This document shows, piece after piece, positions 1,515 through 56,584 of a stretch of 64,000 nucleotides of DNA. The DNA comes from Minisyncoccia bacterium. Lineage in GTDB: Bacteria > Patescibacteriota > Minisyncoccia > SW-4-49-11. Position 1 is the first letter of the stretch; each line of letters opens with the position of its first letter. Position numbers and translations under genes: made by a program. The stretch lies in assembly GCA_044356725.1 (NCBI GenBank), contig JBIKVS010000003.1, forward strand, positions 4,735-68,734, written 5' to 3'. Under the pieces are notes generated by a model. The model had not been told where the DNA came from. It did no database searches and saw only the letters and a program-made list of their open reading frames with translations.

Positions 1515-1673
1515 ATTTTATTCACCATTTATTTCCATTTACTACCACTTTTCACCATTATACACATATTTTATTCCATTGTCAAATCAATTTTAGGTAT
1601 AACTTATAAAAGTAAAAGACCCTAAGTTTGTTTTTAGGTTTTTTATTCTAAATTATAATATAAACTTATTATT

Positions 1674-4268: not shown

Positions 4269-4559
4269 TTATTTTTTCAAAACTGATTTAACTACTAAAT
4301 ACCCTTCTTCTACTAATGGCATTTCTTGGATAATATTTTCTTTAATATTAGAGCTAAATCTTGGATTATTATCTAAAGCAATATCTTCTCTTAGAGATTG
4401 AGTATGATAAGTGGGAATAGTTTTAGCTTCTAAATCTAGAGAAGTTAAAGTTGTGACATAGTCTAAAATATTACCAAAATCTTGAGTTAACATATTATGT
4501 CTTTCCGAAGAAAGGTTAATATGAGCTAATTTAGCAATAGTACTAACATCGTAATCCAT
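4269..4559 (-). CDS. gatC: Glutamyl-tRNA(Gln) amidotransferase subunit C
   Basis: 96 aa with a GatC-like profile (LRED...EEGYLVV) and a position 5' of gatA. Confidence 0.7.
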   Translation of the reverse strand: MDYDVSTIAKLAHINLSSERHNMLTQDFGNILDYVTTLTSLDLEAKTIPTYHTQSLREDIALDNNPRFSSNIKENIIQEMPLVEEGYLVVKSVLKK

Positions 4560-10504: not shown

Positions 10505-10870
10505 GTAAGAAAATTGTGGATTGGGAGTTGTAAATTATAAATTGTGAATGGTGAGTTATTAATTGGGAGTTGGGCATCTGTCTCCCTTCGGAGGGAGTAC
10601 CCGTAGGGGGAGGGTGGATAATGCTTAAAATACTAAAATAAACTATTGTTTGTATTAATATTAAAATCTATCCACCACCGGCACTTCGTGCCACCTCCTC
10701 CAAAGGGGGACAAAATAGGTACAGGCGACTGGAAGGTCGCCCCTACGAATACAAAACACAATGGAGGGATAAACGTTTACCTCCCGTAGGGATGTCTCCG
10801 CTACCAATATAATGTCGGTGGGGGCGCCAACTCTACGAAATTCATAATTTATCATTCATAATTAAAATTA
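10505..10870. repeat. GC-rich hairpin-dense modular element (family copy 1) with degenerate direct repeats at its 5' end
   Basis: The rpsB-ftsW spacer is unusually long (about 450 bp). It holds direct repeats aattgtgNatNggNgagtt x3 (10512-10580), module A gtctcccttcggagggagtacccgtagggggagggtggata (10580-10620), a long-range complement tatccaccacc (10669-10679), hairpins ggcac-ttc-gtgcc and ggcgac-tggaa-ggtcgcc, and module C ggggcgccaactctacgaaatt + ttcataatttatcattcataatt (10820-10865). Confidence 0.6.
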
Positions 10871-18522: not shown

Positions 18523-18620
18523 TTTATTAATATAATATATTGTATTATATTATATTCTAACATATATTCAGAATTTATCTAAGTGTTTGTATCGGATAAT
18601 TATAAATTATATAATTATCT

Positions 18621-18850
18621 GTCCTCCCTTGGGGGAGGTGTCACCGCAGGTGACGGAGGAGGACTGAGCTAAATTCCCCTCTTGAGGGGTGTCAGGCAAA
18701 AGCCTGACGGGGTGGAAAAATAAATTATGAATGATTAATTATAAATTATGAACCGTAGGGGCGCTGACTCTACGAAATTAATGATTCCTAAGCCTGGTAA
18801 AGCATCCTAAATTTCGCGCGGGTGAGTCCAGGAATTTAATCCCCTCAGCG
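18621..18850. repeat. GC-rich hairpin-dense modular element (family copy 2)
   Basis: Module B gtcctcccttgggggaggtgtcaccgcaggtgacggaggaggac (18621-18663) with outer stem gtcctcc/ggaggac and inner hairpin gtcacc-gca-ggtgac. Further hairpins cccctc-ttga-gagggg and gtcaggc-aaaa-gcctgac. Module C aattatgaatgat.../ggggcgctgactctacgaaatt (18725-18778). Confidence 0.6.
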
Positions 18851-20848
18851 AAGAACGCAACGAAAAGTAAGATCACCAGCTGTGAAACTTGGGGTGTTTA
18901 AGGTTGCAAGAGCAAATATTCCTGAATTAGAAGCTGCATTTGCATTACCACCACGTAAAAAGCCAAAGGCAGTGGTACCTGTGACTGTACCTGCCTGGTA
19001 TTGCCCCATATTCTGACTACTATTCCAACTAGTATTACTTGGTCTAGTTAAATCATAGCTTAAAGTGCCGAAATTAGTTATTGCTGTCCATTGCTGCCAA
19101 AAGGTACCAGAACTGTTATTGGGTTTATCTTGTCCTAATATAGTATCACTTGTCCATTCCCAGGAATTTCCACTTAAGTCCCATATTACTTCTCCATTAC
19201 TAAGGGTATGAGTTCTTCTCTGTCCACTTGGACTAGTATTACCTGTTCCAGAGTATCCATCATTATCATCTGTACTTGCTGACAATAAAAGAGCAGGAGA
19301 GTTATCGGTATGTCCGGACCACAAGCCTCCACTGCCTACTGTTCCTCCTGTCCAGTTTACTCCTTGCGCTTCTATGTTACGAGCTATGGTCATCCATTCT
19401 CTATTATTAATTAAACTTCCTCCTGCTAAGTTACACGCTGTTATAGCATTAGTCTGATTTAGGGAGCCTAGTGGTGGCCCTGCTGCTTGTGTGGTTGCTG
19501 CTACTGTTGATGATCCGGTCTTTGCTTCATATTTCATTACACAAAAGTCTCTAGTACCATATAAACTACTTCCAGGTACTCGGATATAGCCTGTTGGACA
19601 TTGTAGATACGACCAACCTGAAGCAGTACAAACTTGCAATCCCCCATTATTATATCTTAAAGTTCCTACATTAGAGCTAGTACAATTAGTAGTATCATTT
19701 CCAACTCTAATCCCACCATTTACATCTAATCTAGCTTGTGGGGTTGTGGTCCCGATACCTATATTCCCATTACCTAATATTCTCATCCTCTCATTAGCTC
19801 CATTTGCTCCAGTGAAGAATCTTATATCTTGAGCGGTAGCATTGGTAGTAGCTAAGACTAATGGCTGCGCACTTGTTGTACCTAACCTACTACCACTTGT
19901 CCCGTTCCAAGCATCTATAGTTGCATTCCCTGTTAAACTCCAGCCTGAACCTACGCTACTAAGACTTACCTGACTAAACTGTCCACTACTATTAGCTAAT
20001 AAAACTCTATCGAAACCACTTGGAGTTGTAGTATTAGCCACTCCTCCTAAGAGTGATGAGGTGACGGCTGTATTAGAAATTGTAAATCTATTAACACCAG
20101 ATGTACTAAATGTATATTGCTGTCCAACACTCCATAAAGTATTAAAACTTAATCCAAAATAAGTTTGAATAAATGAATTAGCAGAATTATCAGTAAATAA
20201 AGATAGTATATTAGTATTATCTGTATTTCTAATATTAAATGCACCTGCATTATTAGATGTATTTCTGATTGAAAGAACGGGATTATTACCCAAAAAGACT
20301 CCTTCTCCTCCTGAGTTTAGAGAGAAAGAATTGGTACTAGTACCACCATTTGCTACTAATCTCATAGAATTTATAGCTGACATTGCTGAGCCTATTCTCT
20401 TACGAGGGCTGAATATCTCTTCATAAGATCCATTCCCATCCGCATCTAATTGTAATTCTACCCATAAAGAATCATCATTGATAGAGCTAAGAGTTGTATT
20501 TTGACTTCCTAATAAAATTTCAAACCTACCATCAACAATAGATAATAGTGGCGATACTATTCCTGAGTAAGTTGTACTTCCATCTCTTATCTCTTCATAT
20601 ATAGATGTACCCCCAGAGACTACATTGTACAAACTAAACTTAACTCTATATCCTCCATCTGCTAACACTGTCCCATCATTTTTCACAATGGTCCCCGAAT
20701 ACGGTATCTGAGCATTAATACCAGTCCCTGCTAAGACTTTATTATAATTAGATATGATTAAAAATATTATGAATAAGAAAGCAATAACCCATCTTAGATA
20801 TGACTTATATTGTATATTAGCAAGTTTGTAAGATTTAAACACATTCAT
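18845..20848 (-). CDS. Secreted/signal-anchored protein with C-terminal FGE-sulfatase-like (C-type-lectin-fold) domain
   Basis: N-terminal signal anchor; C-terminal roughly 250 aa carry CPTGYIRVPGSSLY..DFCVMKYEAK, GNSWEWTSD, FLRGG and a terminal FRCVLR, resembling the FGE-sulfatase/SUMF1 fold. Paralogous to the C-terminus of the 36614-37978 ORF. Confidence 0.55.
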   Translation of the reverse strand: MNVFKSYKLANIQYKSYLRWVIAFLFIIFLIISNYNKVLAGTGINAQIPYSGTIVKNDGTVLADGGYRVKFSLYNVVSGGTSIYEEIRDGSTTYSGIVSPLLSIVDGRFEILLGSQNTTLSSINDDSLWVELQLDADGNGSYEEIFSPRKRIGSAMSAINSMRLVANGGTSTNSFSLNSGGEGVFLGNNPVLSIRNTSNNAGAFNIRNTDNTNILSLFTDNSANSFIQTYFGLSFNTLWSVGQQYTFSTSGVNRFTISNTAVTSSLLGGVANTTTPSGFDRVLLANSSGQFSQVSLSSVGSGWSLTGNATIDAWNGTSGSRLGTTSAQPLVLATTNATAQDIRFFTGANGANERMRILGNGNIGIGTTTPQARLDVNGGIRVGNDTTNCTSSNVGTLRYNNGGLQVCTASGWSYLQCPTGYIRVPGSSLYGTRDFCVMKYEAKTGSSTVAATTQAAGPPLGSLNQTNAITACNLAGGSLINNREWMTIARNIEAQGVNWTGGTVGSGGLWSGHTDNSPALLLSASTDDNDGYSGTGNTSPSGQRRTHTLSNGEVIWDLSGNSWEWTSDTILGQDKPNNSSGTFWQQWTAITNFGTLSYDLTRPSNTSWNSSQNMGQYQAGTVTGTTAFGFLRGGNANAASNSGIFALATLNTPSFTAGDLTFRCVLR

Positions 20849-20936
20849 TATTTATCAATGTTTATTTTATAAAATACTTTATATATGTTAATAAAACTAT
20901 TATACCATTTATCTGAAATAATTTCAATAATAAAAT

Positions 20937-20945
20937 TGTGGATAA
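20937..20945 (-). promoter_or_regulatory. Perfect DnaA-box 9-mer (TTATCCACA on the minus strand), copy 1 of the conserved motif aattgtggataactttatat
   Basis: tgtggataa is the exact complement of the DnaA-box consensus TTATCCACA; it lies in the divergent intergenic region. Confidence 0.5.
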
Positions 20946-21000
20946 CTTTATATATGTCTATTTCCAGCTTAACGGCTTAACTTAATATTAGATCTTAAAT

Positions 21001-21022
21001 TGTGGATAACTTTATATTGACA
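21001..21022 (+). promoter_or_regulatory. Conserved motif aattgtggataactttatattgaca: DnaA box immediately upstream of a -35 TTGACA, pilin gene 1 promoter
   Basis: tgtggataa at 21001-21009; TTGACA at 21017-21022; a -10-like taatct follows after a 17-nt spacer; about 60 bp upstream of the 21083 start. Confidence 0.5.
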
Positions 21023-21082
21023 AAATAATGTATTTGATTTAATCTATATTTAGAGTTATCATTAACATTACTCAAAACTCAT

Positions 21083-21613
21083 ATGAAAATTTACTCTACT
21101 TCTTCAAGCAAAGGTTTCACCTTACTTGAAATCCTATTGGTGATCGCTGCTATCGGTATCTTAGCTGCTATCGTCTTAGTTGCTATCAATCCTAACAGAC
21201 AACTTGCTCAAGCCCGCAATGCTCAGAGAAGGTCTGATGTTACTACTATTTCTAATGCTGTTTATCAAAGAATTATTGATGATGCTGCAAACAATTTAAC
21301 AACTATGAATACAGCTTTAGTTGATAATTTTGTTTATGCTATAGGTACATCAGGTACAGCAACCACAGTAGAAGCAACTTGTGCCACCCTAACTAATGTT
21401 AATGGAACAACTGCTACTAGGACAATTGATTTAGCTACTACATTAGCACCAAATTTTCTTGCATCAATTCCATTTGATCCCCGTGGTGGAAGTACAGCAT
21501 GTACTGGATATGTAATTACTCAATCCGGAACACCAGAAAATGGTAGAATAACAGTTACAGCTCCAATAGCAGGTAGTGATTTAGCAGGTAGCTCAATATC
21601 TGTAACAAGATAA
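21083..21613 (+). CDS. Type IV pilin (prepilin-type N-terminal cleavage/methylation domain)
   Basis: Leader MKIYSTSSSKG|FTLLEILLVIAAIGILAAIVLVAINPNRQ, a class III signal followed by the hydrophobic alpha1 helix; variable Cys-containing C-terminus. Confidence 0.8.
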   Translation: MKIYSTSSSKGFTLLEILLVIAAIGILAAIVLVAINPNRQLAQARNAQRRSDVTTISNAVYQRIIDDAANNLTTMNTALVDNFVYAIGTSGTATTVEATCATLTNVNGTTATRTIDLATTLAPNFLASIPFDPRGGSTACTGYVITQSGTPENGRITVTAPIAGSDLAGSSISVTR

Positions 21614-21631
21614 TTATTTATCTATAAAATT

Positions 21632-21663
21632 AAAAAGAGATGCTATGTACATCTCTTTTTAAT
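21632..21663 (+). terminator. Rho-independent terminator after pilin gene 1
   Basis: aaaaagagatg-ctatgta-catctcttttt: a 6-7 bp stem followed by a T-run. Confidence 0.5.
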
Positions 21664-21670
21664 TTTCAAT

Positions 21671-21692
21671 TGTGGATAACTTTATATTGACA
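21671..21692 (+). promoter_or_regulatory. Second copy of aattgtggataactttatattgaca (DnaA box + -35), pilin gene 2 promoter
   Basis: tgtggataa at 21671-21679; TTGACA at 21687-21692; 17-nt spacer then TAATAT as the -10. Confidence 0.5.
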
Positions 21693-21752
21693 ATTTAAGA
21701 TATATAATTTAATATATATATAGAGTTATAATTAACATTAATCAAAAATAAT

Positions 21753-22253
21753 ATGAAAACTTACTCTACTTCATCAAGCAAAGGTTTCACCTTACTTGAA
21801 ATATTATTAGTTATCGCTGCTATCGGTATCTTAGCTGCTATCGTATTAGTTGCTATTAACCCTAATAGACAACTTGCACAAGCTCGTAATGCTCAGAGAA
21901 GATCTGATATTAATACTATACTGAATGCTGTTTATCAAAAAATTATTGATGAAGGTACCTCCGGAAGTACTGTCACATTAACTGCAATTTCTACTACAGC
22001 AGGAGAAGTTAATAGAAATAACACTACAGGCTCAACCGAATGTACAGGAACTGCTGTTAATATGTCATCTGTAGCATCAGATGCTGGAGCTGATGTTGTG
22101 CCTACTTATTTAGCAGCTATTCCTCAGGATCCATCTGAACCAGGAACTTCAAATTGTAGTGGATATCTAATTTCTAAAGACGGGAATAATAGAATAACTG
22201 TCACTGCTGACAATACCGAGTTAGTAACTCCAGACTTCTTTGTAACAAGATAA
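21753..22253 (+). CDS. Type IV pilin paralog (tandem duplicate)
   Basis: The first roughly 55 codons are almost identical at the nucleotide level to the 21083 gene (MKTYSTSSSKG|FTLLEILLVIAAIGILAAIV...); the C-terminal half has diverged. Confidence 0.8.
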   Translation: MKTYSTSSSKGFTLLEILLVIAAIGILAAIVLVAINPNRQLAQARNAQRRSDINTILNAVYQKIIDEGTSGSTVTLTAISTTAGEVNRNNTTGSTECTGTAVNMSSVASDAGADVVPTYLAAIPQDPSEPGTSNCSGYLISKDGNNRITVTADNTELVTPDFFVTR

Positions 22254-22273
22254 TAACTATCTTAAATACTATA

Positions 22274-22303
22274 AAAAATTGGAGCTTAAGCTCCAATTTT
22301 TTA
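22274..22303. terminator. Bidirectional rho-independent terminator between the convergent pilin and pgm genes
   Basis: aaaaaattggagcttaagctccaatttttt: a perfect 9-bp stem flanked by an A-run and a T-run. Confidence 0.6.
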
Positions 22304-22361
22304 TTTTAATAATATAATATTTTATTTAGATTGCTATTAGATTAGAATGTCAATACAAAAC

Positions 22362-23853: not shown

Positions 23854-24447
23854 TTAATTATCTAATGAAACTGACGATTTGTCAATAACAATTTGTGTGT
23901 TTTTGTTCTCTAATATGTCTAATACAAATTTATCAAACATATTTTGTCTATATTCAAACTCTTTTAAAGTCAAGACTGTATAGATTATTTCTTGAGCTAA
24001 TTCTGTTTCAATATCTTGAATAAGAGTTTCAAATTTTTTCTCATTTACATCATCAGCTACCAGAAACATATCTACTCTATCTTTATCTCTTTGTAAAAAT
24101 GCCCCCATAACTATACATAAATGTATAGTTCCAATTTTGTCAAGTTTTTGGGCCAATGTCTCAAAAAATGATTGACTTAAGCGAAATATAACTGATTCCA
24201 AAGCTAATACTTCCTCAATTTGATTTAAAATATAACTGGTTTCTTTTTTAGATTTAAATTCTTGAATTATATTATACTTGATGGCTTGTCTTAATTCTAC
24301 TTTAAGTGTATTTACTGGTATATGAGTTCTTGTATGTAATTCCTCTAAAGTTAATTTTAGAGTAGCATCTTTCAAAAAAACCTTTAGAATTTTAACTTTT
24401 TCTGTTCCTAATAAATATACTAATGGACTTTTCAGATTAAGAGACAT
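23854..24447 (-). CDS. Hypothetical protein (possible winged-helix plus minimal nucleotidyltransferase-like core)
   Basis: 197-aa ORF; weak G....D.D-like segment IVMGAFLQRDKDRVDMFLVADDV; no firm assignment. Confidence 0.35.
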   Translation of the reverse strand: MSLNLKSPLVYLLGTEKVKILKVFLKDATLKLTLEELHTRTHIPVNTLKVELRQAIKYNIIQEFKSKKETSYILNQIEEVLALESVIFRLSQSFFETLAQKLDKIGTIHLCIVMGAFLQRDKDRVDMFLVADDVNEKKFETLIQDIETELAQEIIYTVLTLKEFEYRQNMFDKFVLDILENKNTQIVIDKSSVSLDN

Positions 24448-24590: not shown

Positions 24591-24846
24591 GTCCTCCCTT
24601 CTACCTACGGCAGACAGGTGGGAGAGGTGGCCCCGTAAATGGGTCGGGAAAACTGGAGTTTTCCTGTGGAGGAAGGCAACGAGGTCAAAGACCGAGTGTT
24701 GGAAACCGTGGCTTTCCAAGGAACAAATCCCATTTGCGAAGACGGAGGAGGACTTCAGGCGGACGTAAGCTCCCACCTATGGTCTATACTTCATAATTCA
24801 ATCTCTATCCACCCTCCCCCTTCCGGTACTCCCTCCTAAGGGAGAC
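24591..24846. repeat. GC-rich hairpin-dense modular element (family copy 3, expanded)
   Basis: Module B 5' half gtcctccctt (24591) and 3' half gacggaggaggact (24741-24757) are separated by a GC-rich insert of about 140 nt. Module A is in inverse orientation: atccaccctcccccttccggtactccctcctaagggagac (24808-24846). The AT motif ttcataattca lies adjacent. The ORFs predicted here on both strands are judged spurious. Confidence 0.6.
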
Positions 24847-24901
24847 AAAATACATCTCAATATTAAAGTATTGTCTACGATGTTTCTAATCTTTTTAAAT
24901 G

Positions 24902-26737: not shown

Positions 26738-27945
26738 TATTCTTGAGTTACCTTATATAGTAAACCATTTTTTTGATCTGTAATAATCATTGCTCCAGCA
26801 TTGTCAAAAGTAACTCCTTTTGGACTTCCCCAAATAGTCCCATCAGATAATAACCATCCGGTAATAAAGTTTTTCGCTGTAGAATCTTGATTAATATCTT
26901 TAATGACTACTTTATATCCTTTAGGAATAGATTTATTCTGACCTCCTTGATATATAAATACATATTTGTTAGCAAAATCACTGTAGAATTTATTTGGAAT
27001 TAAATAGAACCCTGATAATCCATGCCCTTTTGGTAATTCAGCCACTGAAGATTCTACTTTATTTTTACAAAAATCAGTTTGATCGGCATATTTAGGGTCT
27101 GTATTATCGGATCCATAGCAGTATGGCCACCCATAATCTTTTCCTTCTTCTATTTTATTTATCTCAACCATTGGTAATTGATTACTAATTCCAGTTCGTC
27201 CTATATCTGTTACAATAAAGTTATCTTCAGTTAAAACCATATCGGTAATTTGTTTTAATCCCTTTGCAAATAATTTTTCATCTTTTCCATCCATTGAGTA
27301 TGACATTATACTTCCAAATTTTTGGTCTTTAGGTTTACAAGCTTCACAATTAGCTGATATACCTATATAAATTCTATTATCATAAACAGCGATAGTATGA
27401 TATGTATTATTTTTAGGTTTTGGTAAATTATCAATGAGAGTTTTACGCTCTTTATAACTTCCATCAAATTGTATATCAATGTACTGTATAACTTTTGTAT
27501 CTGTAACTATATACACAGAACCATTATACCAATCCAATGATATTATGGCTTTTAATTTATTATCCACAACTTTAGGTTGCTGTGGATTATCATTAGGAAC
27601 TATCCAAAGAGTATTGGATTCACTATCAGTAACAAAAATATTACCTTTATCATCTGATTTTACAAATTGAGGAGATTTAAAACCCTGAGTTAAGATACTA
27701 ATTTTAAAATTTTCTGGAAGATATAAAGTCTGTTTCTTGTCTTTAATATTGATAATCTGAGGCTTTAGTCCATCAAGTACAGGCTCCTCAATTAACTCTT
27801 TGGAAATTAAATTATTTCGCTGAATTTGTTCTTGTCTAAATTGTGTTATTTGTTGTGTTTGAATAAATATAAAAATAACCAGACTTATTAGTATAGTTCC
27901 TATTAGGATACGATAAATGTATTTTGATTCTATACGTACTTTCAT
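26737..27945 (-). CDS. Secreted beta-propeller protein, soluble glucose/sorbosone dehydrogenase (GSDH)-like
   Basis: Signal anchor; DYGWPYCYG motif resembling the GSDH NYGWP motif; blade-like repeats. Confidence 0.5.
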   Translation of the reverse strand: MKVRIESKYIYRILIGTILISLVIFIFIQTQQITQFRQEQIQRNNLISKELIEEPVLDGLKPQIINIKDKKQTLYLPENFKISILTQGFKSPQFVKSDDKGNIFVTDSESNTLWIVPNDNPQQPKVVDNKLKAIISLDWYNGSVYIVTDTKVIQYIDIQFDGSYKERKTLIDNLPKPKNNTYHTIAVYDNRIYIGISANCEACKPKDQKFGSIMSYSMDGKDEKLFAKGLKQITDMVLTEDNFIVTDIGRTGISNQLPMVEINKIEEGKDYGWPYCYGSDNTDPKYADQTDFCKNKVESSVAELPKGHGLSGFYLIPNKFYSDFANKYVFIYQGGQNKSIPKGYKVVIKDINQDSTAKNFITGWLLSDGTIWGSPKGVTFDNAGAMIITDQKNGLLYKVTQE

Positions 27946-34650: not shown

Positions 34651-36552
34651 TTAATCCAGAGTACCGTTGGAGTTATATTTAGCTATAAAGGAATCTGTTC
34701 CTCCTATACTAGTTAGCTCTTGAATAATGCCACCTTGTCCAAAATTAGATAAACCTTGGAAATAACCTACTACTAAAACATTACCATCTATATCCACATC
34801 AACGCCTCTACCAGAGTCTGCACCTGATCCACCAGCTCTCCTAGCCCAGGCTAATGTTCCATTGGCATTATATTTTGCTATAAAGGCATCTTGTGCTCCT
34901 GCACTAACTAATGATGTCTGATTAGATTCACCTTGACCAAAAGTTGCCGTACCCTCAAAGTATCCAGTTATTATGGAACTTCCATCTGTATTTATGGCAA
35001 TATCAATAGCTAAATCTCCTCCATTTCCTCCAGCTTTCTTAGCCCAAGCTAATGTTCCGTCTGAATTATATTTAGCTACATATATGTCTGCTTGTACTCC
35101 TGTACTGACTAATGTTGTTTCATTTGACTCACCCTGTCCAAAGACTGCTGTCCCCCAGAAAAATCCAGTTACTATACTACTCCCATCACTATGCATACCT
35201 ATATCTCTAGCCCAGTTTATATCTGCTCCTATTGACAAGACTTTTTTTGCCCATATAATACTTCCATCTGAATTGTATTTAGCTATATAGCTATTATAAG
35301 TTCCTGAGGCAGTTAAAATTGTCTGATTAGGGTCACCCTCACCGAAAATAACAGAATTAGTGCTAGCAAACTGTCCTGCAACAACAAATGTTCCATCTAT
35401 ATTATTACTAATTCCATATCCCCATTCCCAAGAATTACCACCTATTCTTTTAGACCAGGCTAATGTACCATTAGAATTATATTTAGCTATAAAGGTATCT
35501 GTAGCACCTCCACTAACAAGAGTAGTAGCATTGGCTTCTCCCTGTCCAAAGACTGCTGTCCCCTCAAAGTATCCAGTTACCAAAGCACTGCCATCAGAAT
35601 TAGCAGCTAATCCGAAGCCATATTCTCTTTCACCAGTACCACCTGCTCTCTTAGCCCAAACTAAATTACCATCCGTAGCATATTTTGCAACAAATATATC
35701 TCTACTTCCTGCACTGACTAGAGTTGTGGCATTAGGTTCTCCTTGTCCAAAGACTGCCGTACCTGTAAATGAACCTGTTACAATACTTGTCCCATCTGCA
35801 TATCCTATAATATAGTTACCCCCATAATCTTCACTAGTACCACCTGCTCTTTTGGCCCATGCCAAAGTTCCACTGGGATTATATTTAGCTATAAATATAT
35901 CTCTACTCCCTGCACTGACTAAAGTTGTAGCATTAGGTTCTCCTTGTCCAAGGATAGTAGTACCTTCAAATGAACCTGTAACTAAAACACTACCATCACT
36001 TAACTTAGAGACCCCTCCACTTTTATCCAAACCACCAGATCCCCCAGCTTGGACTAGAAAAGTTTGAGTTGGAGTTATAGTATTGATAACCAAATCTTGC
36101 TCTAATTCTGCTTTATTAGCTCTGAGACTAATCTGATTATTCGAGTCTTTAGCAATTTCATAACCTGTTTCTCCAACTATTGTATCGGTATCTTTGGGAA
36201 TTTCACTTAAGTATGTAGGGACCAACACTCTTAAATCTATCTTACCATCACAGTATCCTGTACTCGGTAGTGTATCTTCTATAGTAAGATTGCCTGTATC
36301 ACATATCTCTATATATGTATTAGTAGGTATGTTTAAATCTACAAATCCCCTATTAACTGCATTATATTGCTGTAATGCATTATAGATATCATTAATTGAG
36401 ACTTGTCTCTCAAGATTTCTAGATTGTGAGATTTGTCTACTAGGATTTATAGCTACTAGAACAATACTAGATAATATACCTATTACAACTATGGTCAAAA
36501 GTATCTCTAATAATGTAAATCCTTTATTACTTATCTTATTATATTTATTCAT
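34651..36552 (-). CDS. Prepilin-type N-terminal domain fused to SBBP-like beta-propeller repeats (large pilin-like adhesin candidate)
   Basis: Leader MNKYNKISNKG|FTLLEILLTIVVIGILSSIV; the C-terminus has about ten repeats of ...GTAVFGQGE.N.TTLVS.G..D.FIAKYN..G.L.WAK.AGG..., matching the SBBP beta-propeller repeat pattern. Confidence 0.65.
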   Translation of the reverse strand: MNKYNKISNKGFTLLEILLTIVVIGILSSIVLVAINPSRQISQSRNLERQVSINDIYNALQQYNAVNRGFVDLNIPTNTYIEICDTGNLTIEDTLPSTGYCDGKIDLRVLVPTYLSEIPKDTDTIVGETGYEIAKDSNNQISLRANKAELEQDLVINTITPTQTFLVQAGGSGGLDKSGGVSKLSDGSVLVTGSFEGTTILGQGEPNATTLVSAGSRDIFIAKYNPSGTLAWAKRAGGTSEDYGGNYIIGYADGTSIVTGSFTGTAVFGQGEPNATTLVSAGSRDIFVAKYATDGNLVWAKRAGGTGEREYGFGLAANSDGSALVTGYFEGTAVFGQGEANATTLVSGGATDTFIAKYNSNGTLAWSKRIGGNSWEWGYGISNNIDGTFVVAGQFASTNSVIFGEGDPNQTILTASGTYNSYIAKYNSDGSIIWAKKVLSIGADINWARDIGMHSDGSSIVTGFFWGTAVFGQGESNETTLVSTGVQADIYVAKYNSDGTLAWAKKAGGNGGDLAIDIAINTDGSSIITGYFEGTATFGQGESNQTSLVSAGAQDAFIAKYNANGTLAWARRAGGSGADSGRGVDVDIDGNVLVVGYFQGLSNFGQGGIIQELTSIGGTDSFIAKYNSNGTLD

Positions 36553-36613
36553 ATTATTTTATTATTAATATATTTTGTAGTATATAATTCTTTTTTATAA
36601 AATACAATAGATA

Positions 36614-37894
36614 CTATCTAATTACACATCTAAAGCCATGTGTAGGTAAAGAGCATGTAGTATTACAAGGGCCAATTGAGAAAACTCCAGCTCCTTCTTG
36701 AGTCGAATCCCAACCTCCTGACCATGAACCACCTCTCATCCAATTAGAGATCTGAGTTGAGCTACTAGGAGAATGACTTATTAATTGTCCTATATTATTA
36801 GAGCTGTTCCAAGCTATATTGCTAGGTCGATAATAATCATAGTATAATATTCCATTACTGATAATATTATTAAATTCTACTCCAGCCCAACTAATTTGAT
36901 TGTTTGAATAAGGCATATCTTTTTGTTGAATAGTATCTGTAGTCCACTCCCATAGATTACCACTAATATCCCAAATAGTTTCCCCATTACTTAATATATG
37001 TGTTCTTTTTTGCTGCCATCCATTATTAATACTATTCCCTGTATCTTTATATCCCAAATTATCATCTGTGCTAGCTTCTAGAGCTGTATTCGGATTATTA
37101 TCACTATGTCCTCTCCAAATCCCTCCATTACCAATTTCGTTTACTGGAGTTGGGATTGGATTATACCAGTTATTAGATACCGATTCTATATTTCTAGATA
37201 TAGTCATACCTTCTACATTAGTCATTAAACTAGCTCCTGCATTAACACAATAACTTGCAGCCGTTGCTTGATCTATATTAGCTATTGGATACCCAGTAGC
37301 TACACTGGCTATAGTTCTACCATTAGCTGCTGTAGTGGGGGTGGTATTATTTGCTATAGTATTGAAACCAGTATTTGGAGTTGTTAAACCTACAGTTGGA
37401 CTATTGATAGCTACTGCTTTAGCTTCGTATTTCATCACACAAAAGTCTTTGGTTTGATATAGGCTGTTTCCGGGTACTTTTATATAACCTGTTGGACAGC
37501 TGAAGTTTCCTGCTGTATCTGTTGTATTGACATAGACTCTACCATCATTCCCTCTTGCTACCGTATATGTGGTACTACTTGGTATTGCGGATACATATTC
37601 TGGTATTAAACTACTTAGGTTTATACAGTCTGGTGTATTTACTGTATTACTACATACTTTCCTTTGTACTCCATCTAGTCCTGCTGGGTAATTACCTGTA
37701 TCTATCAATCTCTGTTGTAATGCTTTCTCTATTGTATTCTTATCGCTATTTATTGCTGCTTGTCTTGCTTGGTTTATTTGTCTATTTGGATTTATGGCTA
37801 CCAGTACTATTGCCGCTAATATTCCTATTGCTGCTATTACTAATAATATCTCTAGGAGGGTGAAGCCTTTGTTGGCTTTTATATTTCTATTCAT
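36614..37894 (-). CDS. Prepilin-type N-terminal domain fused to an FGE-sulfatase-like (C-type-lectin-fold) domain
   Basis: The ORF track extends to 37978 (TTG start). The likely true start is the ATG at 37892-37894, giving the leader MNRNIKANKG|FTLLEILLVIAAIGILAAIV. C-terminal CPTGYIKVPGNSLYQTKDFCVMKYEAK, GNLWEWTTD, MRGGSW and a terminal HGFRCVIR; paralogous to the C-terminus of 18845-20848. Confidence 0.6.
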   Translation of the reverse strand: MNRNIKANKGFTLLEILLVIAAIGILAAIVLVAINPNRQINQARQAAINSDKNTIEKALQQRLIDTGNYPAGLDGVQRKVCSNTVNTPDCINLSSLIPEYVSAIPSSTTYTVARGNDGRVYVNTTDTAGNFSCPTGYIKVPGNSLYQTKDFCVMKYEAKAVAINSPTVGLTTPNTGFNTIANNTTPTTAANGRTIASVATGYPIANIDQATAASYCVNAGASLMTNVEGMTISRNIESVSNNWYNPIPTPVNEIGNGGIWRGHSDNNPNTALEASTDDNLGYKDTGNSINNGWQQKRTHILSNGETIWDISGNLWEWTTDTIQQKDMPYSNNQISWAGVEFNNIISNGILYYDYYRPSNIAWNSSNNIGQLISHSPSSSTQISNWMRGGSWSGGWDSTQEGAGVFSIGPCNTTCSLPTHGFRCVIR

Positions 37895-38019
37895 ATGTAT
37901 GAGTTTATTATTTATAATTTTATTACAGTCTTTTCTATATCTATTTAACATTATACCTCCCCCCCAGATTTTTGTCAAATTTGGAGTGTGCTGATGTATG
38001 TATAGTTAATATAATAATT

Positions 38020-46024: not shown

Positions 46025-47098
46025 ATGTATAAACCTGGTTATAGTGTACTATTATTAACAATAATTATATCAACTATAGGAGTAGCTTTAGCTGTAAGTG
46101 CCCTTAGTAATAGTACTCAAATTGCAAGAACTAATATTAATATTACTGATGTTGTCCTAAATAAATCTAAAGCCTCAAGTTGTGTGGAAAAGGTCTTTAC
46201 TAAGTTAAAATCATATAGATTTTATGGCGGAGATGAGACCTTTGAAGATGGATGTAGAGTCTATACTATCTCAGGTATTGGGAATAGTGAAAGAGTTATC
46301 TACACCAAAGTAGAATCTTCTATCCTAGAGACTAAAATTAAACAAATTAATCCTAACATAATTATAGACTATCAAAAACAAATTACAAATGATCAATTAA
46401 TTCAAGCACAAGAGAATAACCCCTATGTGATTGACCCTAAAGCTATAAGATTATGGCTAAAGGCAGATAGAGCTGAGGCTAACAATAATAATCCCGTATT
46501 TAGTGTTAAAAACTCTACTGATGATTTAATCGACTTTGCTCAGCTTACTAATGCTCCAAATCTAGCTCCAACATTAATTACTAATGCTATTAACAATAGA
46601 CCTGCATTAAGATTTGATGGTATAGATGATTTTCTTACCAGTACCACTACTTCTATACATACTAATAATGGATTAAGTATAATTGTAGTAGGAAAAACTA
46701 GTAATACTGCCAATAATAATCAGACTTATATTGGGAAATTTGATACTACTAATAATGAAAGAGAATGGAGATTGCAAAATGATGAATTTAATATCACAGA
46801 TAGTAACTTGTCCTTTGCAAATAATAATACTAACTTTAATATATTGACTGCACTATGGTCACCAACTTCTCCTCAAATGAGCTTATCTATAAATAATAAT
46901 CCAGCAACTACTGCTACTGGTTCAACTAGTATAACCAATACCACCGAGCCAATTATTGTTGGAGCTAATCTACAAGGAAGTACTGGATTCTTGAATGGGG
47001 ATATTGCTGAAATTTTGGTTTATAATAAAAAATTAAGCACAGATGAGTTAAATAAAGTCAAAACTTATATGAACTCTAAATATAGTCTTTACCCATAA
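46025..47098 (+). CDS. Secreted/pilin-like protein with C-terminal LamG-like (concanavalin A-like) domain
   Basis: N-terminal hydrophobic segment KPGYSVLLLTIIISTIGVALAV is pilin-like but lacks Glu at +5. The C-terminal end LNGDIAEILVYNKKLSTDELNKVKTYMN is typical of a LamG domain. Confidence 0.5.
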   Translation: MYKPGYSVLLLTIIISTIGVALAVSALSNSTQIARTNINITDVVLNKSKASSCVEKVFTKLKSYRFYGGDETFEDGCRVYTISGIGNSERVIYTKVESSILETKIKQINPNIIIDYQKQITNDQLIQAQENNPYVIDPKAIRLWLKADRAEANNNNPVFSVKNSTDDLIDFAQLTNAPNLAPTLITNAINNRPALRFDGIDDFLTSTTTSIHTNNGLSIIVVGKTSNTANNNQTYIGKFDTTNNEREWRLQNDEFNITDSNLSFANNNTNFNILTALWSPTSPQMSLSINNNPATTATGSTSITNTTEPIIVGANLQGSTGFLNGDIAEILVYNKKLSTDELNKVKTYMNSKYSLYP

Positions 47099-47101
47099 AA
47101 T

Positions 47102-48970
47102 ATGAAAAAATATTCAGGATTTACATTATTAGAAATACTATTATATGTAGTTATTGGTGGAGTCACTTTAGCTGTAGCTGTATTTTCATTTGCTCAATTG
47201 AATAGACTCTCTACTTCTTTTAGAGTTAATAATGAATTAAATCAAACTGGCAGCTCAATTATTAGTCAAATTCAAAATATAATCAATGAAGCTGATACTA
47301 TTATAAGTCCCAAATTAGGTAATAATCCTGATAACACTCTAGTCTTGAGAAAAGGGAATGTCGACACTACTATAACCCAATCAGATAATAATATAGTTGT
47401 ATCTTATAGTGATAGTACCCCATCCTTCAATCTGAATCCAGCTGGGATACTAGCTGTAAACACTCCATCACCCACTCTATCATTCGAACAAATTGATACT
47501 CAAGAGAATAAAGATCCAAACAATATATCTCAAACTCTAAAGCTAAAATTTACTCTTAGGTATAACAAACCTGCCTTTAGTAGTTATGAATATGAGGCTG
47601 AGAAGGCTTTTGAAACTACTTTACAATTATCTAAAAAAGCCACTGCCTTTGAGCCTATTCTTAACACATATTCAACAGGAGCCAATGGAGTCGCTTATGG
47701 GTTAAGAAAATTAGTTGGATTTAATACTAATACCAATCTATTATCCTCAGCCTATAATGGACCTGCAATTAGAGTTAGAAGAGATACTGGATTAGATCAA
47801 AGTGAAATGGATATAGGCTTTAATTCTAGAGGAGAATTAGACACAGTAGCTTTACAAAATTTTGTTGGTTATCAAAACTTTTTTAATTATTCTGAAGATA
47901 TAACTAGTCCTAATGGTGGTTGGAGTTTGAATAATATAACAACCATATCAGATAATACAATAGCACCTGATGGGACTAATACTGCTGAGAAAGTTAATCT
48001 GAATACTGGTAATACTCAAAGATTTATATTAAAGGATACAAATATAGTCAGTGGGGCTACTTATACCGACTCCTATTATGTAAAAGCTAATAATAATTAT
48101 AATTTTGTTCAGATAGCAACTAGTACTGGTTTTTCAACCACAGCTTATCAGAACTATAATCTAAGCAATGGCACACTGGTAAGTTCATCTGGAGTTACTG
48201 CTGGGCAAGCTAATATTCAATCTGTAGGAAATGGTTGGTATCGTATTTCTCTCTCAGCCACAGCTACTGCATCTGGTGCTGGAAGAATGGTTTTAGCTAT
48301 TGTAAATTCAGCTACTTCTGCCAGATTAGAGAATGTCAATGTAGCTAATACTACAGACTCAATATTTGTATGGGGTGGCATGAGACATCTTGGGAACACC
48401 CTGAAGACTTATCAAAAAACAACTATCAATGCTAATACTGGGGACGGGTATATCTCTACTTGGTATGACCAATCTGGCAATAAGAATAATGCTATTCAAA
48501 CTAATACATCAGCTCAACCTAAAATTGTAGATGGAGTTACAGGAATAGTATTACAAAATAATAAACCAGCCATTAGATTTGATGGTTCTGATGACCAATT
48601 AGTAAATACATCTTTTAATAATGCTACCAACTCTACAGCATTCTTTATAGCTAGTAGACTCACTAACAATCAATCCTTTATGGCAAGATCTAACAATTAT
48701 GCTACCTTAGGAGCTACAGATTTATTCAATCCATATTATCTGAATAAATCTAGCACATCTGCAACACCTGGATCAGATACTAAAAATAGTCTAAATCTAT
48801 ATACAGCTATTAGAACTTCAGCTATTAATAGCACTCTTAATATAGGAGCTGGAAGTACTGGAAATTTCTTAAATGGTCATATATCTGAGCTAATTATATA
48901 TGATGGTAATAAATTAGCTAATAAATTAGATATTGAGAATAATCTTAGAGATTATTACGGAACTCCATAA
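47102..48970 (+). CDS. Prepilin-type N-terminus fused to a large LamG-like domain protein
   Basis: Leader MKKYSG|FTLLEILLYVVIGGVTLAV; C-terminal GNFLNGHISELIIYDGNKLANKLDIENNL, a LamG-type end; 622 aa. Confidence 0.6.
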   Translation: MKKYSGFTLLEILLYVVIGGVTLAVAVFSFAQLNRLSTSFRVNNELNQTGSSIISQIQNIINEADTIISPKLGNNPDNTLVLRKGNVDTTITQSDNNIVVSYSDSTPSFNLNPAGILAVNTPSPTLSFEQIDTQENKDPNNISQTLKLKFTLRYNKPAFSSYEYEAEKAFETTLQLSKKATAFEPILNTYSTGANGVAYGLRKLVGFNTNTNLLSSAYNGPAIRVRRDTGLDQSEMDIGFNSRGELDTVALQNFVGYQNFFNYSEDITSPNGGWSLNNITTISDNTIAPDGTNTAEKVNLNTGNTQRFILKDTNIVSGATYTDSYYVKANNNYNFVQIATSTGFSTTAYQNYNLSNGTLVSSSGVTAGQANIQSVGNGWYRISLSATATASGAGRMVLAIVNSATSARLENVNVANTTDSIFVWGGMRHLGNTLKTYQKTTINANTGDGYISTWYDQSGNKNNAIQTNTSAQPKIVDGVTGIVLQNNKPAIRFDGSDDQLVNTSFNNATNSTAFFIASRLTNNQSFMARSNNYATLGATDLFNPYYLNKSSTSATPGSDTKNSLNLYTAIRTSAINSTLNIGAGSTGNFLNGHISELIIYDGNKLANKLDIENNLRDYYGTP

Positions 48971-49233
48971 GTTTAGTTAATATTTTTTAAAGTAAGTTTA
49001 TGTTCTCTGAAATATAATACGGTAAATCTCAGTATTTTTTAAATCCAAAAGGACTGAGCTCTGCCTTCTAAAAATCACTACCTACTTTTTACCTCTTAAC
49101 CCATGTTTTCATAGATAAGCCTCGGCTTTTGTCATTGATGATCTGAGCTTATTTTCTACGGCCTTGAGATGTTTATTATATTTATTGTTTTCTCTCATCT
49201 ATTTTGGTGTTTAGATAAAGTTGGAAGATCTTA

Positions 49234-49331
49234 GTCCTCCTCCGTCACCTACGGTGACACCTCCCCCAAGGGAGGACAGTTCTTATCTTGTCTCCATTTG
49301 GAGGGAGTACCCGCAGGGGGAGGGAGGACAG
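49234..49331. repeat. GC-rich hairpin-dense modular element (family copy 4)
   Basis: Module B in reverse orientation, gtcctcctccgtcacctacggtgacacctcccccaagggaggacagtt (49234-49281), is the reverse complement of the 18621-18663 copy with one mismatch. Module A gtctccatttggagggagtacccgcagggggagggaggaca (49290-49330). It sits between convergent genes. Confidence 0.65.
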
Positions 49332-49334
49332 AGC

Positions 49335-50525
49335 CTACAGCCCAAATCTACCTTTGGTAGCATTGAAGTTTTGTTGAATTTCTTCTGGGGTAAGTGCTCT
49401 ACTATAAAATTTTGCAGAATATATTCTACCATTAAAAAATCCATAACTTGGGTAAGCGCCTATCAAATCTGTAGTGATTTTTACATTTGTTCTTGTACTA
49501 GCTAGACCATTTTTTATAAATGTTCCATTTATATAAAGAGAAGGAACTTTATTTGTATAATTTACTACTATATGAATTGGGGCATTTATAGTAACTGAGT
49601 GCGATAATAATGGAGGCATATAAGCAGCTGAATGCTCATAAACACTTATACCATTAGTTCCAACTGATATTCCAGAACCGGCATCAGGAGATGCAACAAA
49701 TTGAGGGCCAATTACATATTTTTGTCCTGATGTACCCCCAAAACCAGAATTAGTTTGTGATTCTATTTCGTGAGTTGTTTGTGGTAGGCACCAAATATCG
49801 TATGAAAAATTATTAAAAACATTAGAAGTACTTGAGGATACTCTATCATCGCCCCCATCAAAGACTAAAGCACCTCCATTAGCAGAGTTGTAGGTAGGAG
49901 TAGAAGGAGCTGGAGCAAGTGTCCCATTATTATTGTTCCCACTTAAATCAAACCAGGTATTTTGGGCTGTATTTAAACCTGGATAACTATTTATATTACC
50001 TGCATCTAGATGTAATACTAGTCCATTAGTGACTATAGATGGAGTGATTGTATTAGATTGTAGTTCAGTAGTAGCTTCTTTATTAATTACTCCTGACTTA
50101 TTAATTATAATAGACTTACTTACTCCCCCACCAGTTAAATCTATTTTAATAGAATCATTACTCAAGTCTAGTTCACCATTGATAAGCTTGAATGGTATGT
50201 CTAATGTCTGTTCTGAACTGACTGTGATGCCAGAATTGATTGTGATAATTTCAGGATATTGAGTAGATGTACAGGTTACTGCTGTTATAGTGTATGTTTT
50301 AGCAGTATTATCTATACATACTCTCCATTGAGAATCTTTATACTGATTTTTAGATAATTGTTGGGCTCTTAGCAATGCATTGTAGAGAGATTCATGGGCT
50401 GCACTTAAATCATTGCGGATTACTATACTAGATACTAAAGGTGTCGTAATAGCTATAAGAATAGCTATCAAAACTATTACTAAAGTAATTTCTATTAATG
50501 TAAAACCTTTATATTTACCCTTCAT
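49335..50525 (-). CDS. Pseudopilin/type IV pilin-like protein with C-terminal LamG-like domain
   Basis: Leader MKGKYKG|FTLIEITLVIVLIAILIAI; C-terminal GFFNGRIYSAKFYSRALTPEEIQQNF, a LamG-type end; last gene of the pilus block. Confidence 0.65.
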   Translation of the reverse strand: MKGKYKGFTLIEITLVIVLIAILIAITTPLVSSIVIRNDLSAAHESLYNALLRAQQLSKNQYKDSQWRVCIDNTAKTYTITAVTCTSTQYPEIITINSGITVSSEQTLDIPFKLINGELDLSNDSIKIDLTGGGVSKSIIINKSGVINKEATTELQSNTITPSIVTNGLVLHLDAGNINSYPGLNTAQNTWFDLSGNNNNGTLAPAPSTPTYNSANGGALVFDGGDDRVSSSTSNVFNNFSYDIWCLPQTTHEIESQTNSGFGGTSGQKYVIGPQFVASPDAGSGISVGTNGISVYEHSAAYMPPLLSHSVTINAPIHIVVNYTNKVPSLYINGTFIKNGLASTRTNVKITTDLIGAYPSYGFFNGRIYSAKFYSRALTPEEIQQNFNATKGRFGL

Positions 50526-53592: not shown

Positions 53593-53958
53593 TTATGTAA
53601 TCAGAACTTGTTTCACGGATTCAGCTAACTGACTAATTGAAACTTCTGATTTTACATAATAAGCAGTTATACCTAGCTTCTCAACACGAGTCCTATCTTC
53701 AGGTTGTCCTAAATTAGTCATAATAATTACCTTAGTAGATTTACTTTTTTTCCTAATAGATTCTAATATTGTAAATCCATCAGCGCCTGGCAATATTAAG
53801 TCTAGCAGAATACAGTCAAAATCTTGTTTATCTATAATACCAAGAGCAATAGTACCATCGTTGGCCACAGTGGTATCAAGTCCAATTTGCTTAAGCTTTA
53901 AATCTAAAACTCGTGCTATAGCTGGCTCATCTTCTATAATTAAAACTTTATATGACAT
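53593..53958 (-). CDS. Single-domain response regulator (CheY-like receiver)
   Basis: VLIIEDEP...ILLDLILPGADG carries the receiver-domain phospho-acceptor Asp; 121 aa with no output domain. Confidence 0.8.
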   Translation of the reverse strand: MSYKVLIIEDEPAIARVLDLKLKQIGLDTTVANDGTIALGIIDKQDFDCILLDLILPGADGFTILESIRKKSKSTKVIIMTNLGQPEDRTRVEKLGITAYYVKSEVSISQLAESVKQVLIT

Positions 53959-55589: not shown

Positions 55590-56024
55590 TTATTCTATAG
55601 TGTTAATAATAACTCCATTTTCGGCTAAAGGAGCTGAGACTATTACCCTCCCCTGATTATTTACATACACAGCATAGCCAGTAATATCTTCTCCCTGTTG
55701 CTGAGGGTCTATAGGAATGTTCCCAAAAGGAATATAAGCTTCTAAATCTGAACTGATATCTATTTTACTATTATCTAGAGTACAGCCTGGCTGACAAATA
55801 CTCTTAATATCATTTGTAACACCAGTAGGTAAATTTCCAGAATTAATATCTCTATATTGATTTATTGCTGTATAGATAGTCATTACATCCGCTTGTCTTT
55901 GAGCATTATTAATGTCTGCAATTTGTTGTCCTGGATTAATCAATCTAAACAGAATAACCATCAATATACTAACTAAAGTCATAACTAATAATATTTCTAA
56001 TAATGTAAATGCTTTTTTATTCAT
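55590..56024 (-). CDS. Pseudopilin/type IV pilin-like protein
   Basis: Leader MNKKA|FTLLEILLVMTLVSILMVIL; 144 aa. Confidence 0.7.
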   Translation of the reverse strand: MNKKAFTLLEILLVMTLVSILMVILFRLINPGQQIADINNAQRQADVMTIYTAINQYRDINSGNLPTGVTNDIKSICQPGCTLDNSKIDISSDLEAYIPFGNIPIDPQQQGEDITGYAVYVNNQGRVIVSAPLAENGVIINTIE

Positions 56025-56584
56025 TATGGTGTATTGTCATTGAATACATTATTTATATCACCTAAATTATCGTCAACTAGTCTATAATTAGCACTCTCAG
56101 CACTTACCCCTGTTGGTTTCTTAGTCATATTAATGAGTGTCTCTTTAAGTTCTATATCTTCCGTATCTCCCTCTGGATTGATTTGATAAGTTACTTTCAC
56201 TGTTACTAACTTAGCATCTGGAGTTACATCATTTTCAATTCTAACTCTACGAGTACGCACTGGATTATCTAATTTATCTTGTGAAGAAATTGGCGCTAAA
56301 ATAAGATTCCACTCACCATTTTCAAATGACAGCCCAAACTCTGCTCCACTAGGATTATTATCAAGATCATCTGTATTAATTAATAAAGAATAATCTTTAT
56401 CTCTAATTGACTTTAAAGCTATAATACCTTCCTTAGCCATAGCTAAAGCCTGACTTTGAGAGATACTAGACTGATTGTTCCTCTGAGCTATAAGCATAGA
56501 GGCAACTATACCAGCTATGGCTAAAGCTAAAATTGAACCTGCCAACAAAACTTCTATAATACTATAACCTTTTTTATATAACAT
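56024..56584 (-). CDS. Pseudopilin/type IV pilin-like protein
   Basis: Leader MLYKKG|YSIIEVLLAGSILALAIAGI with Glu at +5; 186 aa. Confidence 0.6.
   Translation of the reverse strand: MLYKKGYSIIEVLLAGSILALAIAGIVASMLIAQRNNQSSISQSQALAMAKEGIIALKSIRDKDYSLLINTDDLDNNPSGAEFGLSFENGEWNLILAPISSQDKLDNPVRTRRVRIENDVTPDAKLVTVKVTYQINPEGDTEDIELKETLINMTKKPTGVSAESANYRLVDDNLGDINNVFNDNTP

Follow-up and report, generated by a model that had tools for sequence, protein, structure and literature searches.

Perfect DnaA boxes at predicted pilin and adhesin-like gene promoters in a Minisyncoccia bacterium: a candidate conserved operator

A 64,000-nucleotide (nt) stretch of contig JBIKVS010000003.1 from a Minisyncoccia bacterium was analysed; this whole stretch is referred to here as the window. 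It contains two tandem type IV pilin genes, pilA1 and pilA2, and a divergent gene for a secreted, adhesin-like protein. Each of these genes is preceded by a predicted promoter with a nearby 9-mer that is identical to the DnaA box, and the three boxes pair with the three promoters. Comparison with other genomes indicates that the 9-mer is very probably a real, selected and conserved promoter-proximal regulatory site. The favoured reading, held at somewhat better than even chances, is that DnaA binds this operator at the pilA1, pilA2 and adhesin-like promoters and acts there as a transcription factor. The features of the locus are as follows (aa, amino acids; ORF, open reading frame; UTR, untranslated region).

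18845-20848, minus strand: divergent gene for a 667-aa secreted, adhesin-like protein; ORF with a signal/anchor at the N-terminus and, at the C-terminus, a weak FGE-sulfatase-like domain
20899-20927, minus strand: predicted divergent sigma-70-type promoter; -35 TTGAAA (20927-20922), 17-nt spacer, extended -10 TGgTATAAT (hexamer 20904-20899)
20934-20953, plus strand: box copy 1 (distal), exact match; its 9-mer (20937-20945) reads TTATCCACA on the minus strand and is assigned to the divergent promoter
20998-21017, plus strand: box copy 2 (pilA1-proximal); 9-mer 21001-21009, 7-nt gap (CTTTATA) to the -35
21017-21045, plus strand: predicted pilA1 promoter; -35 TTGACA (21017-21022), 17-nt spacer, -10 TAATCT (21040-21045)
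21051-21082, plus strand: conserved 5' UTR block (TAGAGTTATCATTAAC...CTCAT), abutting the ATG and without a Shine-Dalgarno motif
21083-21613, plus strand: pilA1, type IV pilin of 176 aa; leader MKIYSTSSSKG|FTLLE; PF07963, TIGR02532; 1539 homologues found
21626-21666, plus strand: predicted pilA1 intrinsic terminator, a hairpin followed by a T-run; -16.9 kcal/mol, z = -7.6, with 0 of 200 shuffles folding as well
21668-21687, plus strand: box copy 3 (pilA2-proximal); 9-mer 21671-21679, 7-nt gap to the -35
21687-21715, plus strand: predicted pilA2 promoter; -35 TTGACA (21687-21692), 17-nt spacer, -10 TAATAT (21710-21715); 10/12 consensus positions
21753-22253, plus strand: pilA2, type IV pilin of 166 aa; C-terminal domain diverged from that of pilA1
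22271-22304, plus strand: predicted pilA2 intrinsic terminator hairpin with a T-run after it; -17.6 kcal/mol, z = -6.3
23854-24447, minus strand: gene for a 197-aa protein with a predicted winged-helix N-terminal domain, a rival candidate for the binder

The three box copies are the only occurrences in the window of the 20-mer AATTGTGGATAACTTTATAT, all on the plus strand; no additional copy with up to three mismatches was found in the window (0.10 expected from shuffles). The core 9-mer, TGTGGATAA, is the reverse complement of the DnaA box TTATCCACA, and all three 20-mers match this consensus at 9/9 positions. Together with a coding-region copy at 27560 (minus strand), the 9-mers starting at 20937, 21001 and 21671 make four copies, against 0.74 expected. 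The three 20-mer copies are duplicates and non-independent, and a chance calculation inside the window overstates the case; for this reason, statistical weight is placed on cross-species conservation and on enrichment at unrelated pilins of the Candidate Phyla Radiation (CPR, or Patescibacteria).

The promoters are predicted from sequence as sigma-70-type: their -35 and -10 hexamers lie at conserved positions, 16-18 nt apart. The first-pass annotation of this DNA had reported a perfect DnaA-box 9-mer at the consensus -35 of each pilin promoter, and exact matching confirms this; the 20-mers of copies 2 and 3 overlap TTGACA by one base. The pilA1 transcript would start at about 21052, and the box would then span about -51 to -43. 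The TTGACA-N17-TAMTMT arrangement recurs at pilin promoters of relatives. The divergent promoter is the best promoter match of the region (11/12 consensus positions, with TG ahead of the -10) and lies about 44 nt upstream of the start codon of the 667-aa gene. The first-pass annotation had described copy 1 as a third copy without a -35, at 20933-20952. These coordinates are off by one, and copy 1 sits 9 nt from the -35 of the minus-strand TTGAAA-N17-TGgTATAAT.

The tandem pilin paralogs reported earlier are also borne out. Both proteins have the prepilin N-terminal methylation motif, and each gene has its own predicted promoter and terminator. Their assignment as type IV pilins is based on a class III signal peptide with G|FTLLE, on a hydrophobic alpha-1 helix and a small globular domain, on PF07963 and TIGR02532, and on the assembly machinery encoded in the window; we infer from size and from the strong individual promoters and terminators that they are major pilins. 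Since each gene ends in a strong terminator hairpin, pilA1 and pilA2 are taken to be separate transcription units.

Twelve syntenic loci from related species were assembled by scanning a genome collection with the 18-mer TTGTGGATAACTTTATAT, by scanning metagenomes with a pilin alignment and by looking up individual homologues; where needed, loci are cited by number (L146 and so on). Gene order is the same in all 12: a TPR membrane protein, a secreted protein, one to four pilins, phosphomannomutase, the 197-aa protein and Pth. The perfect 9-mer is found at 20 of the 21 pilin promoters in these relatives. It is separated from the -35 by 7 nt at 16 promoters, by 6 nt at two and by 9-18 nt at two. 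Over 18 distinct promoter sequences, conservation is 90-100% in the box columns, 50-88% in the flanks and in the seven bases that separate the box from the -35, and 30-60% in the promoter spacer. Flanks, spacers and pilin copy number (1-4) thus vary among the relatives. This cross-species conservation strongly reinforces the earlier suggestion that the motif is a regulatory site, for DnaA or for another regulator.

The divergent side of the locus is conserved as well. The arrangement TTATCCACA-N9/10-TTGAAn-N17-TAnnnT is kept in 9/11 loci; relatives sharing the TTATCCACA-N9/10-TTGAAn geometry are L146, L198, L200, L202, L204, L206, L207 and L209. In five loci, a single box lies between two back-to-back -35 elements; in five others, including the window, the promoters are 60-200 bp apart and the box is present twice. 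Such a pattern would follow if every promoter required a box at a given distance. In L204, L206 and L209, the two boxes, distal and proximal, agree in the 9-mer and differ in their flanks. A more distant relative with a complete 1.17-Mb genome (L208) has TGTGGATAT-N6-TTGACA/TTGACC at both pilin promoters; this is an 8/9 variant of the box.

In two related metagenome-assembled genomes (GTDB genomes), the exact 18-mer is confined to the pilin locus, so it is not a dispersed repeat. In L146 (1713-1920), the distal box precedes a decayed copy of a pilin promoter and leader (…TAGAGTTATTAATTT) and a GC-rich insertion, which suggests loss of a pilin cassette.

The association extends beyond the clade. 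Among distant CPR pilins, 7 of 104 non-redundant upstream regions contain a perfect box, compared with 0.24 expected from shuffles (maximum 3 in 2000); this is an approximately 30-fold enrichment. The rest of the same loci, 302.6 kb, has two perfect boxes (one sequence present twice). Distant lineages with a perfect box upstream of pilins include L181, L135, L164 and L083; L083 is an eighth independent case, with TTATCCACA located 31 nt upstream of a TGcTATAAT pilin promoter. Of the 17 perfect boxes in 395 kb of CPR DNA, 13 are intergenic; 12 of these are located upstream of pilin genes.

Matches to the 18-mer in the genome collection (114) are mostly box clusters that can be recognised as oriC or dnaA promoters. 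In four CPR genomes, the dnaA gene itself has the box in its promoter: L016 (Woesebacteria), L019, L046 and L074. The DnaA proteins of these four retain the base-contacting RDH(T/S)TV(M/I)HA motif. The exact 18-mer is also found 56-142 nt upstream of mraZ in L066 and L087 (Saccharimonadales; Patescibacteria single-amplified genome), and between the CIRCE/hrcA promoter and an ATPase gene in L080. DnaA-box-like sites may be common in CPR promoters.

It is unlikely, on present evidence, that the 9-11-mer is the operator of some other transcription factor and resembles the DnaA box by coincidence. The best candidate for such a factor is the 197-aa protein, probably a regulator of transcription. 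It lacks a Pfam match and shows weak similarity to a DNA-binding family; its AlphaFold2 model (predicted local distance difference test score, pLDDT, 73) has MarR/ArsR regulators as top Foldseek matches (E about 1e-3) for a MarR/ArsR-like winged-helix fold at the N-terminus, and a C-terminal alpha/beta domain is predicted. The protein is highly conserved (identities of 79-94%, or 59-94% over all 54 homologues), its homologues are all in this clade, and every close relative keeps the gene in synteny with the pilin locus; this synteny is unspecific, the whole region being conserved in order. A factor other than DnaA would also fit a pilin-promoter site that lacks a paired DnaA box. MarR/ArsR-type proteins, however, bind palindromic or repeated sites as dimers, whereas the element here is a single asymmetric 9-11-mer, and no inverted or direct partner half-site is conserved in the 18 distinct promoter sequences. 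A 9/9 match to the universal DnaA consensus by the site of an unrelated factor would be a coincidence of about 1 in 260,000. In addition, boxes occur at pilins of L181, L135, L164 and L083 (and as the 8/9 variant in L208), lineages without an evident homologue of the 197-aa protein.

Two further readings were considered. Chromosomal sites that titrate DnaA are an established concept (described in PMC12371093), and three perfect boxes inside 750 bp could bind DnaA for replication control by titration or inactivation, as do E. coli datA and the B. subtilis DnaA-box clusters, and not for regulation of the pilins. This is improbable: box number tracks promoter number (one or two boxes in single-pilin relatives, with one in L200 and L202; three in four-pilin L198), and each box is held at a fixed distance from a -35 and re-duplicated where divergent promoters part. 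No datA-like dense cluster and no adjacent weak boxes were found at the locus, which has one box per promoter. Least probable of all is a repeat with no protein-specific function, either an AT-rich UP-like element or a passenger of tandem duplication or gene conversion. The box does occupy the UP element zone (-40 to -60), the similarity of pilA1 and pilA2 does begin at the 20-mer, and paralogues are homogenised in several relatives. UP elements, though, are A/T tracts rather than TGTGG, and the invariant core TGTGGATAA has three G residues; this G-containing 9-mer is invariant over 13 loci (the window and 12 relatives) while AT-rich flanks and spacers diverge. A passenger would not be expected to persist as the 9-mer amid unrelated flanks, as in the distal copies of L204, L206 and L209, or to be acquired by unrelated CPR pilin promoters, and the pilins of the window are without recent conversion.

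As the binder, DnaA requires the fewest assumptions: it would account for an exact match, for an asymmetric site, and for the recurrence of the element in several distant CPR lineages and in four CPR dnaA promoters. A short, asymmetric, non-palindromic element is as expected for recognition by monomeric DnaA domain IV, and DnaA is the sole factor known to be common to all lineages showing the pilin association. In E. coli and Caulobacter, DnaA is documented as a transcription factor (PMC11317965, PMC3193534).

Several observations weigh against DnaA. In E. coli chromatin immunoprecipitation sequencing, 13 of 32 single consensus boxes were bound in vivo, and a second box 2-3 bp away is normally needed (PMC11317965); no paired second box was found at the sites in the window and its relatives, where the adjoining 9-mers, read by eye, agree with the consensus at 1-3 of 9 positions. 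The fourth tandem pilin of L198 (pil4; 4420-4500) is a natural box-less variant: the TGTGG half is replaced (tttatATAACTTTATATTGACA) and the -35, -10 and ORF are intact, so the box is dispensable there. The box is present in both orientations relative to the promoter, and its distance to the -10 ranges over 27-41 nt in distant lineages; a rigid protein-protein contact with RNA polymerase is disfavoured as a result. Finally, the clade-restricted winged-helix protein is encoded two genes downstream of the pilins.

Whatever the binder, the selected core of the probable operator is the 9-mer TGTGGATAA, centred at about -47 (pilins) or about -49 (divergent gene) from the predicted starts; DnaA would bind it via monomeric domain IV. 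Each pilin gene is a self-contained unit of box, -35, -10, conserved leader lacking a Shine-Dalgarno motif, conserved N-terminal helix, variable C-terminal domain and terminator, and this unit is present or duplicated one to four times depending on the species; the box appears as a repeat because the whole unit has been duplicated. Where divergent promoters are back to back, one box would serve both; where they are separated by extra DNA, as in the window, the box would be duplicated and each promoter would keep one at the right distance.

If DnaA is the binder, expression of pilin and surface protein would follow the level or nucleotide state of DnaA. The sign of control is a matter of speculation: modulation or repression is favoured and obligatory activation is less likely, because the three core promoters are near consensus and should fire unaided. 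DnaA could interfere with contacts of RNA polymerase through the C-terminal domain of the alpha subunit or through sigma region 4; alternatively, DnaA-ATP could spread onto the neighbouring -35. In the double-box geometry of E. coli, a second DnaA protomer would cover the pilin -35. The pilin genes (21083-22253, plus strand) oppose the strand of almost all other genes in the window and are probably transcribed head-on to replication. That they are among the few genes oriented against the presumed replication direction offers a conjectural rationale for tying them to the initiator.

Known DnaA-regulated promoters (E. coli dnaA, nrdAB, polA, rpoH and purH; the Caulobacter regulon) likewise have TTATCCACA in or just upstream of a sigma-70-type promoter (PMC11317965, PMC3193534). 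The targets in known regulons are nucleotide, replication and repair genes, whereas those described here are surface-structure genes (pilin, adhesin-like) in Patescibacteria. The present candidate sites also differ in being single boxes without a partner 2-3 bp away, and in that one box can serve two back-to-back promoters. The CPR dnaA promoters of L016, L046, L074 and L019 have the same 9-mer in promoter context, and three have the 20-mer AATTGTGGATAACTTTATAT unchanged; since an exact 18-mer search brought up these loci, the shared flanks are an ascertainment effect. In the dnaA promoters of L016, L046 and L074, the box is placed between the -35 (TTGACT) and the -10, where occupancy would occlude the promoter, as is typical of autorepression; the pilin boxes, in contrast, are upstream of the -35.

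Sigma-54/PilR-dependent pilA promoters in Pseudomonas and Myxococcus have dedicated upstream regulator sites for transcription of the major pilin. The pilin promoters described here likewise have an upstream site; unlike them, they have no -24/-12 promoter, and the response regulator of the pilus cluster lacks a DNA-binding domain. Perfect boxes outside oriC are also found in datA, DARS and the B. subtilis clusters; those boxes are clustered and control DnaA availability, whereas these are tied to promoters and their number follows gene copies. Caulobacter PilA signalling also links pilin to cell-cycle initiation (PMC7196804), although in the opposite direction (from pilin through a kinase to the cell cycle) and with no DnaA box at the pilin promoter.

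The origin of the similarity between pilA1 and pilA2 can be examined by comparing them with orthologues. The first-pass annotation had described the 5' coding sequence as nearly identical over about 55 codons and had attributed this to gene conversion or duplication. Actual identity is 88.5%; the two genes are no closer to each other than to their orthologues from other species (identity up to 92%), and the first 60 residues hardly vary across the pilin family. Because of these two findings, purifying selection is taken to explain the similarity in this genome, and nothing here points to recent conversion. The 26-mer that precedes each gene is shared by pilA1 and pilA2 without any difference (100% identity), against the 88.5% of the 5' coding end, and the 5' edge of their similarity coincides exactly with the start of the 20-mer. 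In other relatives, pilin paralogues are homogenised (92-98% identity in the 5' coding region).

Neisseria pilE/pilS loci likewise have several pilin copies that are conserved at the 5' end and variable towards the 3' end. In contrast to that system, silent cassettes are absent here, since each pilin gene comes with a promoter, start codon and terminator of its own, and the window shows no sign of recent conversion. A site for site-specific recombination or cassette exchange was rejected: no recombinase is nearby, and the duplicated units of L198 and L118 include long homologous stretches of 3' UTR and terminator, which points to ordinary tandem duplication.

The 5' UTR block is conserved in the close clade, unlike the promoter spacer. 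It contains TAGAGTTAYCATTAACATTAATCAAAACTCAT at 21051-21082 and 21721-21752, with homologous sequence in L030, L105, L118, L146, L198, L204, L206 and L207. This block may be an element for translation or mRNA stability, or a second operator. The 667-aa gene is syntenic in relatives, with proteins of 461-856 aa. Its match to PF03781 is weak (E = 0.0036, below the Pfam cut-off), and the orthologue in L202 matches the same family with E at most 1e-5.

Other identities for the 9-mer were considered and rejected. A sigma-54 promoter (TGGCAC-N5-TTGC) does not fit when read by eye, as the distance from GG to TTG exceeds the required spacing by 3 nt and the -12 position lacks GC. For a CRP-like site (TGTGA-N6-TCACA), the right half is unconserved in relatives and the 'spacer' is conserved. 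The region is not a replication origin: GC skew is monotonic across the window, and there is no box cluster and no AT-rich unwinding region. The gene dnaA is not among the ORFs of the window scanned against Pfam.

Some similar sequences in the window were also set aside. A one-mismatch box upstream of mraZ (1558) consists of TGTG plus TATAAT, an extended -10. The mraZ promoter itself (1555-1583, minus strand) reads TTGACA-N17-TGTGTATAAT and is followed, down to 1515, by TGG-containing repeats that resemble MraZ operator boxes. The sequence 'aattgtgga' at 10512, which had been proposed as a related motif, matches the DnaA box at only 7/9 positions and lies in an unrelated 28-nt direct repeat. 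Two such repeats, AAATTGTGGATTGGGAGTTGTAAATTAT and AAATTGTGAATGGTGAGTTATTAATTGG, are in tandem at 10511-10566; they are 75% identical, flank a GC-rich element and are not DnaA boxes.

GC-rich intergenic repeats of 40-130 nt (86-96% identical) are found at 10579-10620, 18619-18668, 24806-24847 and 49284-49333, and also in L148, L151, L156, L160 and L194. This family contains GGTGGATAAT, has hairpin-forming potential, and is often located upstream of long pilin-like genes; it has no Rfam match. The sequence GGTGGATAA at 10613, also present upstream of long pilin-like genes in L160, L190 and L194, is part of this dispersed repeat and not a DnaA box. An Rfam search of the window gave tRNA-Phe as the sole match and none in the GC-rich intergenic regions.

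The window is AT-rich (GC about 31%). Almost all of its genes are encoded by the minus strand, and the GC skew stays negative throughout. Gene content (a dcw cluster, type IV pilus machinery and starts without Shine-Dalgarno sequences) fits an ultrasmall Patescibacteria/CPR genome. A Shine-Dalgarno-like motif is found upstream of just 3 of 55 genes in the window, and translation initiation without Shine-Dalgarno pairing appears to be the rule in the source organism. Copies of the locus in Lake Mendota metagenomes are identical or near-identical; relatives carry the labels Paceibacteria, Parcubacteria and Ca. Elulimicrobium.

PilB (T2SSE), PilC (T2SSF) and minor pilins are encoded at 47-56 kb of the window. 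The sole response regulator in this type IV pilus cluster (53593-53958) is the one without a DNA-binding domain. Large pilin-like proteins with beta-propeller (DUF5122), Laminin_G_3 or FGE-sulfatase-like domains are encoded at 34651-37978 (minus strand), 46025-50525 and 55590-56584; their genes adjoin those for PilB, PilC, a PAS histidine kinase and the receiver-only response regulator. No DnaA box was found upstream of these large pilin-like genes.

Literature searches turned up no account of DnaA boxes at pilin promoters, nor of a DnaA regulon in CPR. To our knowledge, almost nothing is known of gene regulation in the Patescibacteria. The pilin and adhesin-like promoters are new candidate members of the class of DnaA-box-containing promoters, in an unexpected setting (pilus and adhesin genes) and an unexplored phylum. 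A conserved cis-element at these promoters provides a concrete handle on the control of pilus expression. Type IV pili are central to how these bacteria live; in cultivated Saccharibacteria, they are described as driving host attachment and twitching motility (PMC11623550).

A tentative extension, held at rather less than even chances, is that the ultrasmall, host-dependent Patescibacteria, which are poor in transcription factors, have recruited DnaA to regulate their attachment apparatus directly; it would act on the major pilins and the adjacent adhesin-like protein through one high-affinity box at about -47 of each promoter. Such control would have arisen or been kept in several CPR lineages and would couple replication to pili. 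If DnaA does bind, the DnaA regulon would be extended to surface structures, and this would suggest how attachment to the host is tied to replication status in a minimal genome. Should the binder be another factor, the site would mark the operator of that factor. Either way, the box and promoter would form a compact native promoter-operator module for CPR genetics.

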